Origin: Escherichia phage vB_EcoM_Lutter
DNA: 64,000 nt
Strand: one strand, 5' to 3'
Sequence record: NC_054924.1
The translations under genes were made by a program, and so were the position numbers. A model generated the notes under the pieces. It was given only the letters and a program-made list of their open reading frames with translations. It ran no database searches and had not been told where the DNA came from. Below are positions 1 through 11,037 of this stretch, piece by piece (position 1 is the stretch's first letter; each line of letters starts with the position of its first letter).

Positions 1-268
1 ATTTGCAGAAATTTTAGCGTAAGCTGAAGTATTAGAAAGAACAATAACTGTTCCGCCATCATACAACCAATTAGCAGCAAAGTTAGTCACAGCAATTGAT
101 TTACCAGATTGACGTCCACCATCTAGTCGAAGTGTGCAATACTGTTTGAGTAAGTCTTCAAATGGTGGGATATAATCGTTTTTACAAATTTCTTCTACTC
201 TAGCATCAGAATGGTGTGTAAAAGCATTCATCAGGGATAGATAAGGACCAGTTAAAAATGTTCTCATT
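1..268 (-). CDS. Hypothetical protein, N-terminal part only (gene runs off the window start); P-loop-like motif GRQSGKS
   Basis: Minus-strand ATG at 268-266, open to position 1; translation MRTFLTGPYLSLMNAF...LDGGRQSGKSIAV contains a Walker-A-like motif. Confidence 0.4.
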
Positions 269-444
269 TTGTTATCTCTAAATTTGGGCCATTCCGTGGC
301 GCGTGAATTGTCCATTTCTGTATTTACCCATTACCGCACTTGGGATCGACCTTATTACAGGTTGGCGGGAATCCCTCACAGAATCATGAGGTCCAGCTTG
401 TTCCCATGTTATTTGAATATAAATAGTCCTAAGTATAGGCCTTA

Positions 445-1023
445 TTAATTACCACGGGCTGCATTAGCAACGGCATAAGCGTACTGAACATTAGCGTCCT
501 TAAACGTACCTTTAGAGGTATCTATTTCTGCCTTAAAGCCGCCTTTAGCCATAACATCGGCAAATTCTTTACGGAAAGCCATTGCATCAAGACCTTTCCA
601 TGATGATTTGTGCTTAGCGAATTCAAGACCAGCGTAGTTGACAGCCTTAGCTAATTTATTATCAATGACCCATTTACCGGCTTTAGGCACAAACTTCGGG
701 CCTTTTTGTTTAGAGAACAGTTTTAAATTCCAGCGACGAAGATCACTGTCGGCTTTAACAAAAGCTGCGTCTAAGTTACTAGCAACAACATCTTCAATAT
801 GAGCAAATTTAAGTCCGTCAACTTCAATATTTAAATCGGTACGCCAGCGAAGTCCTTCCCAAGCGAAAGCTTTAAAGTCAGAAGCCTTTGTAGCTAAGTA
901 TCGTTCAATAGGAGCTGTTTTAGGGTCAAAGCCGTTTCCCGATCGATAGGTCCACTCATCTTTATTAATGCCTTTGGCCTTTTCCACAGAAGCTTCAGCG
1001 ATAAATTCTTTATACGTTTTCAT
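445..1023 (-). CDS. ipIII: Internal protein III (capsid-packaged, injected)
   Basis: 192 aa ORF; N-terminus MKTYKEFIAEA is the T-even capsid-targeting sequence with an I-A-E protease site; size and position match T4 IPIII. Confidence 0.8.
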   Translation of the reverse strand: MKTYKEFIAEASVEKAKGINKDEWTYRSGNGFDPKTAPIERYLATKASDFKAFAWEGLRWRTDLNIEVDGLKFAHIEDVVASNLDAAFVKADSDLRRWNLKLFSKQKGPKFVPKAGKWVIDNKLAKAVNYAGLEFAKHKSSWKGLDAMAFRKEFADVMAKGGFKAEIDTSKGTFKDANVQYAYAVANAARGN

Positions 1024-1087
1024 TTTTGTTTCCTTGTTTGTTTTGATAGAGTAATTATACCATATTAATACTTAAGCGTAAACCGTT

Positions 1088-1348
1088 TAAGCTTCACCGC
1101 CAGAAATAATTCCGAAGTTGTTAAAATCGTATCCAATATCGTCAACATCTACTTTAGGACTTGTAGCAACATAAGCAATTTCACTGCGTTTTGCATAGGT
1201 GTTGATTTCTTTACCATCACCACCTAAGAAAAAAATACCCATTACGTTTTAATGAGCCAAAATCTTCGGCATCACCAACGAAAGCTTTAACTTTAAATTT
1301 GGGGCCTTTGGCATCTGCTTCAGCGATAAATTCTTGATACATTTTCAT
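1088..1348 (-). pseudogene. ipII: Internal protein II-like gene interrupted by a frameshift in an A7/T7 homopolymer
   Basis: ATG at 1348 gives MKMYQEFIAEADAKGPKFKVKAFVGDAEDFGSLKRNGYFF then stop; the +1 frame continues LGGDGKEINTYAKRSEIAYVATSPKVDVDDIGYDFNNFGIISGGEA to the stop at 1088-1090; frames join at the 7-nt run 1229-1235. Confidence 0.55.
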
Positions 1349-1354
1349 TTTTCC

Positions 1355-1768
1355 TTAGTAAATTGATTTACCATAGTATTTGTACCAAGTCGGACGTTGA
1401 GCAATTTTTTCATCTAAGCGTGCTTGACTTATCGCAATGGACGCTTCGGACGGGACATAATTATTACGAAATTCGGCAGGGATGTCGGAAATATCCTGGA
1501 CTGTCGTGTCCTTGATTTTGAAACCACGTTTCAAGCATTCGGCGATTAGCTCGATTTGTCGTAAACGTAAAAATTCAAGTTTGTCGTAAAAGAATGTTAC
1601 GTGACCTGTGCCTAAGATAAATGTTGGAGAGATTTTAAAATCCTTTACACGTTTACCGTTTTGAACATGTTTACGGACTGCACCAAATACGCGTGGTAAT
1701 TCACGATACTCAGCCATAAGATGTTGGTCGGTCAGTTCAGAAACAAGTGTTAAATTGATACGAGTCAT
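1355..1768 (-). CDS. denV: Endonuclease V (pyrimidine-dimer DNA glycosylase)
   Basis: [12 protein letters not shown]...[12 protein letters not shown], 137 aa, near-identical to T4 EndoV by recall; track start 1780 is a TTG extension, ATG at 1768 has a GGAGGA SD. Confidence 0.9.
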
Positions 1769-1780
1769 AATTTCCTCCAA

Positions 1781-1827
1781 GTAGTTGATGAATGTATAGT
1801 ATCAAAACCCTTGGAGGAAGTAAACAA
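1781..1827 (-). promoter_or_regulatory. Early promoter with stem-loop (PeSL-like) upstream of denV
   Basis: Minus strand GTTTAC, ~17 nt, TACTAT; 8-bp inverted repeat cctccaag/cttggagg encloses the -10. Confidence 0.45.
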
Positions 1828-3068
<1,241 letters not shown>

Positions 3069-3087
<19 letters not shown>

Positions 3088-3557
3088 TCAGTGATAAAGC
3101 TATTTAAATTTTGAGCATATTTCTTTTCATCATAAATCTTTTGCTGTCTGCGTAAACGCCATGGCATTTCAATGAACGTGTACCATATCCCAGATAATAT
3201 TGCTGCTGTAAAAATATTAACAAGTATGGTTAAAATAATCCAATCTCCCGTTCTGTCTACTGGACTTTCTCCAAAGAAGCAAAATACAAATGATGTCACA
3301 GGAAAACTAATAATATACCACAGAATCATAATCTTATCTGTGAACCAATCAGTGTTCGTTAATTTAGCGCGACCATTATGAATACACACGAATTTATCAT
3401 CTGTTGCAGTAGATGGCTTAACTGGTTGATATCCCATTCTAAACTCCCTAATCAGCAAATTTTTCATATCTTCGGAACAGCCATTCCAGTCAACTCTATC
3501 AACTGAAATGCCATCATCCCCATCATCTAAATCATACCAGCGAGTTTTTAAAATCAT
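3069..3557 (-). CDS. Small membrane protein, paralog 1 of a tandem family
   Basis: 162 aa; two hydrophobic helices then a basic stretch and C-terminal motif FITECRKLK; ATGA overlap with the upstream gene. Confidence 0.6.
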
Positions 3558-3928
3558 TTGATTTTCCTACAATCATTCACGAATTCTTTCATTGATTCAT
3601 TTTCAATATAAGACATGTAGTTATTATATTCTTTTAATTGTATTTTGTAATCCTTTTTTCTTTGCCAATTTATTTTAAAATTATCATAATGAAAATATAA
3701 AATAATACCAAAGAATGAAAATAATGAAATCGCTATAGTATAATGAAGTTCACTCCAAACTTCTATTATATCTACTATACCGCTGACATTACTGCGGATG
3801 TTTAAAATAATACAGTCAATCATTAATCCAATAAGACTACCCGCAAGAGCTGCAGCCAACGCCACAGCAAAAATTAAAAATGACTCAGAAAACGAATATT
3901 TGACTTTATTTAGTTTTGGCTTTTGCAT
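3554..3928 (-). CDS. Small membrane protein, paralog 2
   Basis: 124 aa; hydrophobic helices; C-terminal FVNDCRKIK. Confidence 0.6.
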   Translation of the reverse strand: MQKPKLNKVKYSFSESFLIFAVALAAALAGSLIGLMIDCIILNIRSNVSGIVDIIEVWSELHYTIAISLFSFFGIILYFHYDNFKINWQRKKDYKIQLKEYNNYMSYIENESMKEFVNDCRKIK

Positions 3929-4302
3929 CGTGATTCCTTAACAAATTTCATAATTTCATCAAATTCATACGCGGCAAGTTTAAGCTGATGTTCCTTTTTA
4001 ATCTTTTTACACTGTGCTTTCCAATCACGTACACGTTTACGATAATGTCTTCCTTGATACCAATATCCTATCCAATTTACAGGTACTAATAAAAGTGGAA
4101 CTATTAATGGAAGAATTAGCATTAACACAAGTATTTCGCCAGAATCAATATCAGTCATAACATCTAAAACACCTCCAATAATCAATAGAATTACAAATGA
4201 TATGAGTATAACAGGACCTATTAACACATCAGTAGAAATTATCTGGCGCTTTAATTCATACTTTAAGGGTTTACTTGGAAGATACATTGATGGCTTTGAC
4301 AT
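3910..4302 (-). CDS. Small membrane protein, paralog 3
   Basis: Track start 4323 is TTG; ATG at 4302 (MSKPSMYL...) has an AAGGAA SD; C-terminal FVKESRCK. Confidence 0.55.
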   Translation of the reverse strand: MSKPSMYLPSKPLKYELKRQIISTDVLIGPVILISFVILLIIGGVLDVMTDIDSGEILVLMLILPLIVPLLLVPVNWIGYWYQGRHYRKRVRDWKAQCKKIKKEHQLKLAAYEFDEIMKFVKESRCKSQN

Positions 4303-4879
4303 ATTCTCTACATTCCTTAACAAATTTTTCTAATAATAAATCGCTTTCAAAATTAGGATTTTCCACGAATTTATCAAAAAGATCATCAACGATAGTTAAG
4401 ATATTCTTTTTATTAAGAATACGCTTATTTTCATATTTTGTTTCAGAGTCAACTATAAGAGTAAAGAAATATTTCTTTCCCTGAAATTTTACCGTAGTAT
4501 CAATATAGAACAAATTTGACTTTTGTAAATTACGTTTAAACCATGCGTCACTTAAACTATAAACGCCAAGATAATCATAATCGTCGTTTAAATAACAAAC
4601 TGTCCATTCAGGAGAAATGAAATCAGTAAATTCAACATCAAAATCACATGTCAATGAATGAATCGATTCAATACTTTTAATAAGTATTCCAGGACGTATT
4701 AAAGACTTTTTACCTCTGGAAAATCTTCCAGAAAGACTTTCATTAGTTTCATATGAAGAACCCCAATAATAATTACGCCCTTCTGCCATACGTTTAAGAG
4801 CATTTAGTAATTGATCTGGAACATCAACCTGTCTTTGGAACTCTTCAAACATTGAATTGAAATCACTTTGCATTTTCAT
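4271..4879 (-). CDS. Hypothetical protein sharing the C-terminal FVKECR motif
   Basis: 202 aa, not hydrophobic; C-terminus EKFVKECREYVKAINVSSK. Confidence 0.6.
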   Translation of the reverse strand: MKMQSDFNSMFEEFQRQVDVPDQLLNALKRMAEGRNYYWGSSYETNESLSGRFSRGKKSLIRPGILIKSIESIHSLTCDFDVEFTDFISPEWTVCYLNDDYDYLGVYSLSDAWFKRNLQKSNLFYIDTTVKFQGKKYFFTLIVDSETKYENKRILNKKNILTIVDDLFDKFVENPNFESDLLLEKFVKECREYVKAINVSSK

Positions 4880-5906: not shown

Positions 5907-5950
5907 AATGTTTTCCTTGTGATGATAAGTCTATAGTAACGCCTTCATAC
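5907..5950 (-). promoter_or_regulatory. Early promoter upstream of 5571..5906
   Basis: Minus strand GTTTACA, 17 nt, TACTAT. Confidence 0.4.
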
Positions 5951-6115
5951 TTAGATGTAAACTATTTCAACATCACCTTTTGCTGCTTTATAACCTTCAG
6001 CCCAAGATACAACCGAGTTTTTATCTGAAGATTCAAATTCTGGCATTGGGCTTTCGCCAATGTTCACGCAGTATGTTTCTTCATTTTCGTCGAACCAAAT
6101 AATTAAAGTAGTCAT
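5951..6115 (-). CDS. Small hypothetical protein (54 aa), absent from the ORF track
   Basis: ATG at 6115 preceded by GGAGAAATAA; MTTLIIWFDENEETYCVNIGESPMPEFESSDKNSVVSWAEGYKAAKGDVEIVYI. Confidence 0.4.
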   Translation of the reverse strand: MTTLIIWFDENEETYCVNIGESPMPEFESSDKNSVVSWAEGYKAAKGDVEIVYI

Positions 6116-6183
6116 TTATTTCTCCGTTTCTGTATTTGTTTTGATAAGTCTATAATAACACCGTCCTTGGTGTTTGTACACAA

Positions 6184-6447: not shown

Positions 6448-6658
6448 TTTATTCTCCAAGTTGTTTTCTGTATCAGTAGTTGATAGTTGTATAGTACCAT
6501 GGAAGAACAGGGATGTAAACAGTTTTGTGAAAAAATTTTTTAAAAAGTTTTGGGGAATTCTGGGGCAGGGAGGGGCAATTAAAGGATAGGATAATATATT
6601 ATAACGGGTAGAAACTAAATGATGTCTGGAGAGGCCCAGAAAGGCCTAGATGCCAAAA

Positions 6659-6689: not shown

Positions 6690-7163
6690 TTATTTGATTT
6701 GTTTAGCAGACCAAATGCGGTCTTTGATAATTTTTTGGATGTCTTCAACATACTCAAGAGAGTGAACATGTGGATTATCTTTGAAACTATGAGCTCGCGC
6801 AAGTTTCTGGCCTTCAGTTTTGATTACTAAAAGCTCTTTAAGGATAGCTTCATATTTGGAGATAATTCCTTTAACAATATTTTTCTCTTGTGCGACTTTA
6901 GGATCTGCTTTAGGAGCAGGTTTACCCGAAGCCTTTGCAAAAGCAGCGCCAGTAGCAACTAAACTTTTCCAGGCCATACTAACTGCATTTCCCGTAAATC
7001 CTTCCGCTTTCATGTCGCGTGCGAACTGGAATCGCGATTCATCAGAAGCATCTTTATAGGAATATTTACCCGCTGCAATGGCTGCTTTTGCGACAGCTTG
7101 AATTTCGGTGCTAGATGCTTCATTTAACACCGCTTCATTTAAAAATTGAGTATATGATTTCAT
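6690..7163 (-). CDS. Candidate internal (capsid-packaged) protein with capsid-targeting-like N-terminus
   Basis: 157 aa; MKSYTQFLNEAVLNEA resembles the MKTYxEFIAEA targeting sequence, with two L-x-E motifs; own late promoter at 7200-7207. Confidence 0.6.
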   Translation of the reverse strand: MKSYTQFLNEAVLNEASSTEIQAVAKAAIAAGKYSYKDASDESRFQFARDMKAEGFTGNAVSMAWKSLVATGAAFAKASGKPAPKADPKVAQEKNIVKGIISKYEAILKELLVIKTEGQKLARAHSFKDNPHVHSLEYVEDIQKIIKDRIWSAKQIK

Positions 7164-7199: not shown

Positions 7200-7207
7200 T
7201 ATTTATA
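7200..7207 (-). promoter_or_regulatory. Late promoter (TATAAATA) for 6690..7163
   Basis: Plus-strand tatttata, ~35 nt upstream of the ATG at 7163. Confidence 0.5.
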
Positions 7208-8168: not shown

Positions 8169-8243
8169 TGGTGGCCCTGGGTGGAATTGAACCACCATCT
8201 GGCGATTATGAGTCGCTTGCTTGAACCTTCCAGCTACAGGGCC
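8169..8243 (-). tRNA. tRNA with anticodon CAU (Met, or Ile if C34 is modified)
   Basis: Acceptor ggccctg/cagggcc; anticodon loop cuCAUaa; T-loop ttcaatt; encoded CCA. Confidence 0.65.
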
Positions 8244-8251
8244 AAATTTTC

Positions 8252-8734
8252 TTATTTTATGTAGTATTTATTTAAAAACTTTCTAGCTTGAGTATGGCTA
8301 ACATTTATAGCGTTTGCATAATTTTTAATAAAACCTCGTTCATCCATATTAAAATTTTCTAATATTTTTAATCGTCTAGTTATCTCATCTTGGCTTAAGG
8401 TACTTGCATTATTTTTAGAAATTTTTTCTAAAGACTGCACTGAGTGTTTTCGACCATTAAAATTAAAATTTTTAGATTTTGGAGGAAATCTATCATTTAG
8501 TCTCGCATCTTTTGTATTTTGATTATTAGTTGCGCAATATATGTTATTTAATGAGTATGGTCCTTTATCACCAAAACGACACATACAGTATTCATGACCC
8601 TTTCTTCCACGCTTATCATAATTTCCCGTTGATTTCCACCAATTCAACCACTCATCAAAAGTTAAATTCCATTCAATGTTTCTACGTATAGCAGAATTCC
8701 GCTGAGAAATATATTTTGCATAATCTTCTTTCAT
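8252..8734 (-). CDS. Hypothetical protein inside the tRNA cluster; possible degenerate homing-endonuclease-like protein with a C-terminal DNA-binding tail
   Basis: 160 aa from the ATG at 8734; RRNIEWNLTFDEW and GHEYCMCRFGDKGPYSLNN resemble HNH-family fragments; C-terminus SHTQARKFLNKYY resembles the C-terminus of the HNH protein at 9130-9738. Confidence 0.4.
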   Translation of the reverse strand: MKEDYAKYISQRNSAIRRNIEWNLTFDEWLNWWKSTGNYDKRGRKGHEYCMCRFGDKGPYSLNNIYCATNNQNTKDARLNDRFPPKSKNFNFNGRKHSVQSLEKISKNNASTLSQDEITRRLKILENFNMDERGFIKNYANAINVSHTQARKFLNKYYIK

Positions 8735-8781
8735 CACAAATTTCTCTACTTATTACATACACTAAGCTAAATCAGCAAAAC

Positions 8782-8871
8782 TGGCGGAGGCGATAGGATT
8801 TGAACCTATGAGTCGCCGGAGCGACTGCCGGTTTTCAAGACCGGTGCATTAAACCACTCTGCCACGCCTCC
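8782..8871 (-). tRNA. tRNA-Ser (anticodon UGA), type II
   Basis: 90 nt; acceptor ggaggcg/cgcctcc; anticodon stem ccggt/accgg, loop cuUGAaa; long variable arm. Confidence 0.8.
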
Positions 8872-9123: not shown

Positions 9124-9129
9124 GCTATA

Positions 9130-9738
9130 TTATTTATTACGTGAAAAAGACTGTTCTATCAATTCTGGACACTTTCGTTCTATCCATTTTCTAGCTTTTT
9201 GTGGGCTTATACCTATTATTTTAGCAGCTTTACTAACCCATCCAAATTTAGAATAATCGATTTTAACTAATTCTTCGTAAATTTCATCAGTTAAAATCTT
9301 TTCATTAATATTTACCAGTAAATGATATAATTTATTATCATTAGCAATTTTAATGAATCTTTTATAGTTTCCGCCTTTACTTAAACCTAATGAAGTAATT
9401 GCAGATGATATAGTAGCCGAATTTAATAGTGCGTTTAAAATTTCTTCATCACTAACATTATAACGCTTTTTATTATTTTTAATATTTTTACCAGCAAAAG
9501 TATCAGTTTGCGAATGGCAGTTTGGACATAATAATCTTAAATTTGATTTAAGATGATTTTTGTTATTTCCATCAATATGGTCTAATTGCAGAACAATATG
9601 CTTATTTTGCCATTTTGAAATTTTACAAATTGCACACTCATATGGAAAAATATTTTCTTTTATTATTTTGTCTTTCAGCTTTCCTGTACTAAAATTTGGA
9701 TGTTTTCCTTCAAAAATTTCAGCTAATTTAGTATCCAT
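9130..9738 (-). mobile_element. HNH-family homing endonuclease, free-standing, abutting tRNA-Leu
   Basis: CAICKISKW...HIVLQLDHIDGNNKNHLKSNLRLLCPNCH is a canonical HNH/zinc-finger motif; basic helix-turn-helix-like C-terminus; track start 9762 is TTG, start uncertain. Confidence 0.7.
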
Positions 9739-9848
9739 AATATGATTCCCAATTATTAACAAAGGCTCTCAAACAAGAACCCTTGATGATAGAGGGTATT
9801 AATCAGTGCGGTATGAGTTAATAATAACAAATAATTCTTAAAGCATAT

Positions 9849-10721: not shown

Positions 10722-10791
10722 AGTAGTTGATAGGGTAATAGTATCACAACTAAAACCCTATGTAAACAACTTTGTGAAATTATTTTAAATC
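10722..10791 (-). promoter_or_regulatory. Early promoter plus stem-loop cassette (PeSL-like); copy 1 of a direct repeat
   Basis: Minus strand GTTTACA (10761-10767), 17 nt, TACTAT (10738-10743); 30-nt core 10762-10791 is identical to 11092-11121. Confidence 0.55.
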
Positions 10792-11037
10792 TTCTAATCG
10801 TTTCTTCATCTTAGAACCATTTTTAGCAATTTCTCCTGCATCGGAGCATAACGCTAAAAGTGCTTTAACTTTAGTTTGGTCTCCTTTAAAAGACGAAGGA
10901 TCGACCGCAGCAGCAAGTTCTTTAATACGAGAGAAAAGACGCTCAGCTTCAGCTAAAGCCATTCCAAGCTTTACTTCCATACCGTGAGAAGATTCAGTAA
11001 TAGTAGTTTTTGTAGCAAACTCTTTGAAAGTTTTCAT
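10780..11037 (-). CDS. ipI: Internal protein I-like protein (ipI locus, variable allele)
   Basis: 85 aa; MKTFKEFATK... N-terminus; sits immediately downstream of 57B in the transcription direction, as ipI does in T4. Confidence 0.65.
   Translation of the reverse strand: MKTFKEFATKTTITESSHGMEVKLGMALAEAERLFSRIKELAAAVDPSSFKGDQTKVKALLALCSDAGEIAKNGSKMKKRLEDLK

Follow-up and report, generated by a model that had tools for sequence, protein, structure and literature searches.

Probable recent loss of an RB69ORF125c-type internal head protein gene in Escherichia phage vB_EcoM_Lutter through a one-nucleotide insertion in a T run

Streisinger-type frameshift hotspots at runs of A or T are classically represented by the rII and lysozyme frameshift mutants of phage T4. 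The biology of capsid targeting and of cleavage by the prohead protease has also been established in T4 (PMC9391042, PMC3012670). For some of the internal proteins a role against host defence has been described: IPI inhibits GmrS/GmrD, and IpII inhibits the fused GmrSD (10.1101/2023.04.06.535777). IPIII is required only on ECOR17 and is readily lost in experimental evolution (PMC9391042). Here, a broken internal protein gene of Escherichia phage vB_EcoM_Lutter is compared with these systems. The DNA analysed, referred to as the window, is a stretch of 64,000 nucleotides (sequence record NC_054924.1), and all the positions given below are those of this stretch. It carries eight tRNA genes, i.e., the same number as reported for Lutter.

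The broken gene consists of two overlapping ORFs on the minus strand (1348 to 1217 and 1242 to 1087), which meet at seven consecutive A on the plus strand (1229-1235), read as T7 on the coding strand; the +1 insertion lies in this run. This run is the sole A7 in the region and one of just three runs of at least seven bases in the 64 kb. The 5' fragment (1217-1348, minus strand; sequence MKMYQEFIAEADAKGPKFKVKAFVGDAEDFGSLKRNGYFFLRW) has 43 codons followed by a TGA stop. Its codons 1-40 are ancestral and the final three (L-R-W) are out of frame, the premature stop falling three codons past the run. The fragment opens with the capsid-targeting sequence (CTS) MKMYQEFIAEA (1316-1348, minus strand). 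A Shine-Dalgarno-like AAGGA (1352-1356, minus strand) lies 3 nt upstream of the first ATG and overlaps the stop codon of denV (1355-1357). The 3' fragment (1087-1242, minus strand) has 51 codons starting from an internal ATG and terminates with a TAA stop at 1087-1089; the codons at 1090-1227 (46 aa, LGGDGKEIN...ISGGEA) correspond to the ancestral C-terminal half. On direct reading of the sequence, no Shine-Dalgarno-like sequence was seen before the ATG of this fragment. Lacking both a ribosome-binding site and a CTS of its own, the 3' half is not expected to yield a functional packaged protein.

This arrangement bears out a sequence-only reading of the same DNA, which had described a minus-strand ORF of 43 codons followed by a stop, with the rest open in the other frame and the two frames meeting at the A7 at 1229-1235. 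The same reading had called the CTS perfect; the CTS is indeed present, and it is near-perfect, sharing 10 of its 11 residues with the start of T4 IPII (MKTYQEFIAEA). By analogy with the biology of T4, the protein would be targeted to the capsid and cleaved by the prohead protease after ...IAE.

The gene is embedded in a cluster of minus-strand genes whose relative order is e - IP93 - denV - broken gene - ipIII. The lysozyme gene e (2106-2594, minus strand) is followed by a gene for an internal protein of 93 aa with a CTS-like start (phrog_3499; 1828-2109, minus strand), by denV (1355-1768, minus strand) and, after the broken gene, by the gene for an IpIII homologue of 192 aa (phrog_5341; 445-1023, minus strand). 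A strong sigma-70-like promoter (TTTACG, a 17-nt spacer, TATAAT, and an extended -10 TG) is located between the broken gene and ipIII (1054-1082, minus strand), so that the expression of ipIII should be independent of read-through from the broken gene.

Once one T is removed, the repaired protein matches phrog_2667, annotated as 'internal head protein' (E=5e-20). This membership, the CTS with its predicted prohead-protease site, and the location in the variable internal-protein cassette identify the gene, at the level of sequence, as one encoding an RB69ORF125c-type internal head protein of T-even phages (phrog_2667; e.g., NP_861815.1 and YP_010066527.1). The name ipII, which had been given to it in the sequence-only reading, has to be abandoned. 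The comparison with T4 ipII proposed there gave a BLASTP alignment with T4 IPII (100 aa) covering residues 1-11, i.e., the CTS alone. T4 IPII itself matches phrog_7857 (6e-54), a group different from that of the repaired protein. The search of Pfam with the repaired protein gave no match at E<=1, the Phage_T4_IpII model (PF26874) included, and no Pfam match was found for the neighbouring internal proteins either. The position also differs, the order in T4 being e - ipIII - ipII - denV. The similarity to T4 IPII ends with the CTS; the function of T4 IPII is not transferable to the protein of the broken gene. An AlphaFold model built on an alignment of seven sequences is poor (pLDDT 63, pTM 0.52) and shows a small alpha/beta domain; Foldseek retrieved nothing from the PDB under E=0.3 with this model, and the search of PDB sequences with the protein gave no match.

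A 451-nt query matched 204 phage records. The best match was PTE-Eco15, which has T6 and a single annotated CDS of 84/86 aa. Both halves of the broken gene share 99.6% of their DNA sequence with this intact, annotated gene, which rules out that the two ORFs are a chance pattern. The run is T6 also in BGP, moha, and PNJ-6, and it is TTCTTT in RB69, whose gene (RB69ORF125c) is annotated as 'internal head protein'. The 24 phage records matched by an 81-nt query with the run at its centre were all 1-2 nt shorter than the window. The deletion of one T from T7 restores a protein of 86 aa, and exactly this sequence is publicly available with T6 (P0012 and P0027); the earlier expectation that one base fewer would give an intact protein is therefore confirmed, the length being 86 rather than about 88 aa. 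The protein haplotype of the window is found with T6 on six contigs, and the closest of these (L033) is separated from window 180-1842 by the extra T and a single mismatch, which makes T7 a very recent derived state.

The repaired protein is one residue off the protein of PTE-Eco15, BGP, and IME340, and eight residues off that of RB69 (about 91% identical). Intact copies reach homologues that are 70-74% identical in other Tevenvirinae (VR7, SP18, and S16); the family is small and was found in T-even-like phages only. The pN/pS of the intact alleles ranges from 0.18 to 0.5 and, together with the existence of distant intact copies, indicates that this is a real and moderately constrained gene wherever it is intact. 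Exact-pattern scans of IMG/VR with T7 and T6 30-mers gave no match. A length-tolerant pattern applied to IMG/VR, JGI metagenomes, and GTDB genomes retrieved five loci, all five intact, a number too small for allele frequencies.

In the public annotation of Lutter, the products of 41 aa (from the second Met) and 51 aa are reported as two separate 'internal head protein' CDSs (QLF82380.1/YP_010071870.1 and QLF82375.1/YP_010071869.1); they are identical to the two fragments of the window, and the pseudogene is already implicit in the record in the form of these two small CDSs. It might be argued, as the sequence-only reading had allowed, that the phage truly carries T6 and an intact gene, the extra base being an artefact of sequencing or assembly: homopolymers are the classic place for indel errors, the nearest relatives have T6, and T7 is shared by none of the records of the phage collection, including those matched by the 81-nt query. 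The data speak strongly against such an artefact, which we regard as very improbable. Lutter was sequenced by Illumina MiSeq (2x300) at 97x (PMC7471380), and an isolated consensus error at this coverage is improbable. The comparison of the window with phage BGP (96-98% identity over 64 kb) disclosed a handful of indels, nearly all of them in the variable tRNA/IPI region. Among the homopolymers of at least six bases in the sequence aligned to BGP, 54 of 56 agree in length, which excludes a systematic homopolymer problem; of the two that differ, one is the run of the broken gene and the other is intergenic (6536-6541). Moreover, the Logan assembly of SRR12226697, produced by a different assembler, is 100% identical to window 1-4342 (4,342 bp), T7 included; on the basis of this identity and of the BioProject date, SRR12226697 is probably the read set of Lutter itself. 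Finally, T7 occurs in several unrelated metagenome assemblies, on three haplotypes. The extra T is thus almost certainly genuine, the support provided by assemblies and sequence comparison being indirect but convergent.

The exact pair of 41/43-aa and 51-aa products was retrieved from ten further contigs outside the Lutter project, and T7 was present in all ten of them. Outside Lutter, the T7 allele is found in at least five other metagenome datasets; the contigs come from ERZ28563777 (SAMEA4688887), SRR35661298, ERZ27249817, ERZ27250031, and SRR23387595, and, within PRJEB26961, from ERR2597373 and ERR2597438, each in both ENA and Logan assemblies. Compared with the window, the flanks of the ten contigs (93-98% identity) contain an extra 104-aa gene before ipIII and a denV haplotype of the BGP type; the divergence among the contigs reaches 2%. 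The T7 of the window and that of the ten metagenomic contigs may go back to a single event or to separate ones, given that the SNPs distinguishing them are 49-156 nt away from the run and that recombination is free among T-even phages. In L028 (from ERR11042183), which carries a third T7 haplotype, differences lie at 44 nt on the upstream side of the run and at 10-16 nt on its downstream side, and its T7 would be most simply explained by an independent event. Judging from these haplotypes, T7 is a naturally occurring and recurrent allele. The T7 copies show no substitutions that arose after the insertion, and the downstream half is undecayed in every one of them, which fits a recent event and would also fit some residual function.

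The insertion is not the only lesion of this gene. At least ten distinct disabling lesions were catalogued, some of them double (ECO07P1, SF2-1, and L028). ECO07P1 carries T5 plus a second 1-nt deletion, and SF2-1 harbors the latter deletion together with a different one of 1 nt; since these two phages come from different laboratories and have one deletion in common, this lesion must be real and inherited, and further decay followed it. At the run itself, UFV13 has a 2-nt deletion (annotated as two CDSs), and in 11 metagenome contigs the GGG adjoining the run is reduced to GG. Single-base deletions are located at other positions in 236Ecol005PP and G2133, two bases (+AA) are added in Pu-Krd-SF6, and L028 possesses an extra G besides T7. 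An in-frame internal deletion leaves 38 aa in 172859UKE1, PhAPEC2, and JS09, 5' truncations are present in OLB35 and ECO07P2, and the protein collection contains further truncated or fused forms, with a denV fusion among the larger events. About half of the catalogued lesions fall inside the 12-nt segment GGGTATTTTTTC, a clustering in keeping with a hotspot of slippage in a gene under relaxed selection.

The frequency of frameshifts was estimated on two samples, each of 60 rows taken at even spacing: one for this gene, from its 216 matching records, and an equivalent one for denV, from the same collection. Some of the records are GenBank/RefSeq duplicates. Frameshifted copies accounted for 5 of the 45 near-full-length genes sampled vs. 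none of 54 for the adjacent denV (Fisher's exact p=0.017). In the records with a broken internal-protein gene, denV is intact; together with the absence of frameshifts in the denV sample, this indicates that the excess is specific to the gene and does not reflect sequence quality.

Two observations concern the products of decay. The in-frame deletion found in vB_EcoM-172859UKE1 (L038:407-517), PhAPEC2, and JS09 gives a CTS-bearing mini-protein of 38 aa (MKMYQEFIIEADAKGPKVDVDDIGYDFNNFGIISGGKA); it is common to several isolates and apparently took place between the short repeats …AAAGGTCCTAAA… and …AGTCCTAAAGT…. In a metagenome contig (L023:2433-2736; ENA ERZ27280545, contig k141_1098109) a true T4-type ipII (PF26874) is split into ORFs of 34 and 71 aa, so that frameshift decay affects other internal-protein genes too; the same contig also bears the G-deletion remnant of the RB69-type gene.

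The coexistence of T5, T6, and T7 alleles, the presence of T6 and T7 in near-identical backgrounds, the three haplotypes of T7, which suggest recurrence, and the concentration of the lesions around the run might also be read as the marks of a contingency (phase-variable) locus, in which the T run would act as a reversible on/off switch hedging between hosts in which the protein is of advantage and hosts that sense it. Features of the gene itself make such a function very unlikely: the tract is just 6 nt long, many intact alleles, that of RB69 among them, have it in the interrupted form TTCTTT, and it does not look conserved as a tract. Furthermore, non-repeat lesions, double lesions, and deletions represent irreversible decay, and, to our knowledge, the protein has no known phenotype. 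The related idea that the T6 run and the adjoining GGG form a natural switch of an injected protein, flipped among T5, T6, and T7 according to whether a host defence is blocked by the protein or senses it, has, in our opinion, a very slim chance of being correct; if it were true, the abundance of broken alleles would testify to selection for loss rather than to neutral decay.

The undecayed 3' half of T7 copies in several wild backgrounds is also what would be expected if a useful full-length protein were still produced, either by +1 ribosomal frameshifting on U7 or on CUU-AGG, or by transcriptional slippage on T7. The mRNA around the run reads UAU UUU UUU CUU AGG UGG UGA. Re-pairing from UUU to UUC is open to tRNA-Phe, the anticodon of the phage tRNA-Arg is UCU, and a shift at either position would regenerate exactly the ancestral ...YFFLGGDG. 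CUU AGG resembles the CUU-AGG-C heptamer of Ty1, and AGG is a rare codon in E. coli. Efficient slippage of RNA polymerase usually needs runs of 8-9 or more, a length which a run of seven does not reach. All the features in favor of recoding are by-products of the addition of one T to an in-frame ancestor, and the out-of-frame arrangement is not conserved: the large majority of the orthologues have T6 or TTCTTT and keep the frame, and other lineages have lost it in the opposite direction (T5 or the G deletion) or at unrelated positions, some of them doubly. A Shine-Dalgarno-like AGGUGG is located downstream of the run, whereas the stimulator of the prfB type sits upstream. No frameshift-stimulating RNA fold was found downstream of the run (z=-0.59), and no Rfam element matched the frameshift site. 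Recoding that keeps a useful protein is hence regarded as highly doubtful. The synthesis of some full-length protein through slippage of the ribosome or of RNA polymerase is chemically possible, given the sequence of the run; of the low-level slippage suggested in the sequence-only reading, an incidental leak is conceivable, and a sign of a programmed event is missing, the run being not conserved out of frame and a stimulating structure being not detected.

Overall, we consider it highly probable that the extra T is a genuine and recent loss-of-function frameshift due to slippage in a conditionally dispensable accessory gene, i.e., that the gene is an ordinary pseudogene. Among the three options of the sequence-only reading (pseudogene, assembly artefact, and low-level slippage), the first is the one favored by the evidence. 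The properties expected of a slippage pseudogene are observed: a homopolymer one unit longer than in intact orthologues, with a premature stop, and relaxed selection, seen in the independent disabling lesions of other lineages. According to this reading, strand slippage during replication (Streisinger model) would have added one T to the T6 run. Proteins of the RB69ORF125c type would enter the prohead by means of their N-terminal CTS and be injected together with the DNA; the mutant product would be a stub of 43 aa that retains the CTS and is devoid of the C-terminal 46 residues. The loss would be tolerated if each internal protein serves as an accessory against the defences of particular hosts and can be missing on permissive ones, a conditional dispensability for which the literature on T4 speaks. 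The same gene is decaying independently in many T-even phages. By analogy with the other internal proteins, the protein of the broken gene probably acts against a host defence after injection, and many hosts would lack its target.

In the annotation of Lutter, a single pseudogene, not named ipII, should replace the two small CDSs that are now called 'internal head protein'. More generally, the locus is a small but well-documented case of turnover in the repertoire of injected internal proteins of T-even phages, accessories related to host range and anti-defence, in which the loss occurred by point decay and not by replacement of the cassette. The sole mildly notable point is how often the RB69-type family has been disabled independently across T-even phages; the repeated loss of this one family suggests that the defence it targets is absent from many current hosts.

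The cassette and the neighbouring accessory region are variable in other respects. Around the tRNA genes, in the accessory region, window segments 5917-6152, 8243-8761, 9126-9745, and 10785-11003 did not align to the otherwise 96-98% identical BGP; on this comparison, they are apparently insertions or mosaic replacements. An ORF of 157 aa (6690-7163, minus strand) with the CTS-like start MKSYTQFLNEA adjoins the tRNA cluster, has no Pfam match, and is preceded by the T4 late-promoter motif TATAAATA (7200-7207, minus strand); it probably represents the variable internal protein encoded at the IPI locus. Another ORF, of 161 aa (8252-8737, minus strand), lies within the tRNA cluster, between tRNA-Met (8169-8243) and tRNA-Ser (8782-8871), in a segment without a match in BGP (alignment gap 8243-8761); it has no Pfam match and looks like a mobile, homing-endonuclease-like insertion. 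In the metagenomic lineage L021-L027 (e.g., Logan SRR31937012, SRR25936299, and ERR6748748), denV is absent upstream of the gene disabled by the G deletion, and T4-type ipII and/or ipIII follow in an order that varies, which points to a rapid shuffling of the cassette at this locus. The sister phage Ozark (L034; MT682713, 63570-64377), described in the same study as Lutter and reported to be 97% identical overall, has a different cassette, with neither denV nor this gene and with a wholly different pair of small genes at the locus, and so provides no sequencing control from the same run. In a phage-sized metagenome scaffold of 170,167 bp (ENA ERZ28619812, scaffold_3), LysE and LysR-family genes are located at the end (L029:7366-8712), suggesting a chimeric join with bacterial DNA in the assembly.

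The comparison with known systems can be drawn as follows. With T4 IPII, the broken gene shares an N-terminal CTS, the small size of the product, and the neighbourhood of e, denV, and ipIII within the variable internal-protein cassette; it differs in the lack of similarity past residue 11, in the PHROG and Pfam results, and in gene order. The recoding sites of prfB (CUU-UGA-C) and Ty1 (CUU-AGG-C) resemble UUU-UUU-CUU-AGG in having shift-prone codons followed by a rare one, and a shift by +1 would restore the ancestral protein; in the window, by contrast, the out-of-frame arrangement is not conserved and is accompanied by neither an upstream Shine-Dalgarno stimulator nor a supporting structure. 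The hotspots of T4 rII and lysozyme would have in common with this locus the gain of one unit in a 6-nt homopolymer, recurring at the same run in independent backgrounds, with the difference that here the alleles are natural ones, from wild and isolate genomes, and not selected in the laboratory. The RB69ORF125c-type genes share with the gene of Lutter the length of 86 aa (once the T is removed), the position between denV and ipIII, and the CTS, and differ from it in that the gene in the window is split by T7 into two ORFs of 43 and 51 aa.
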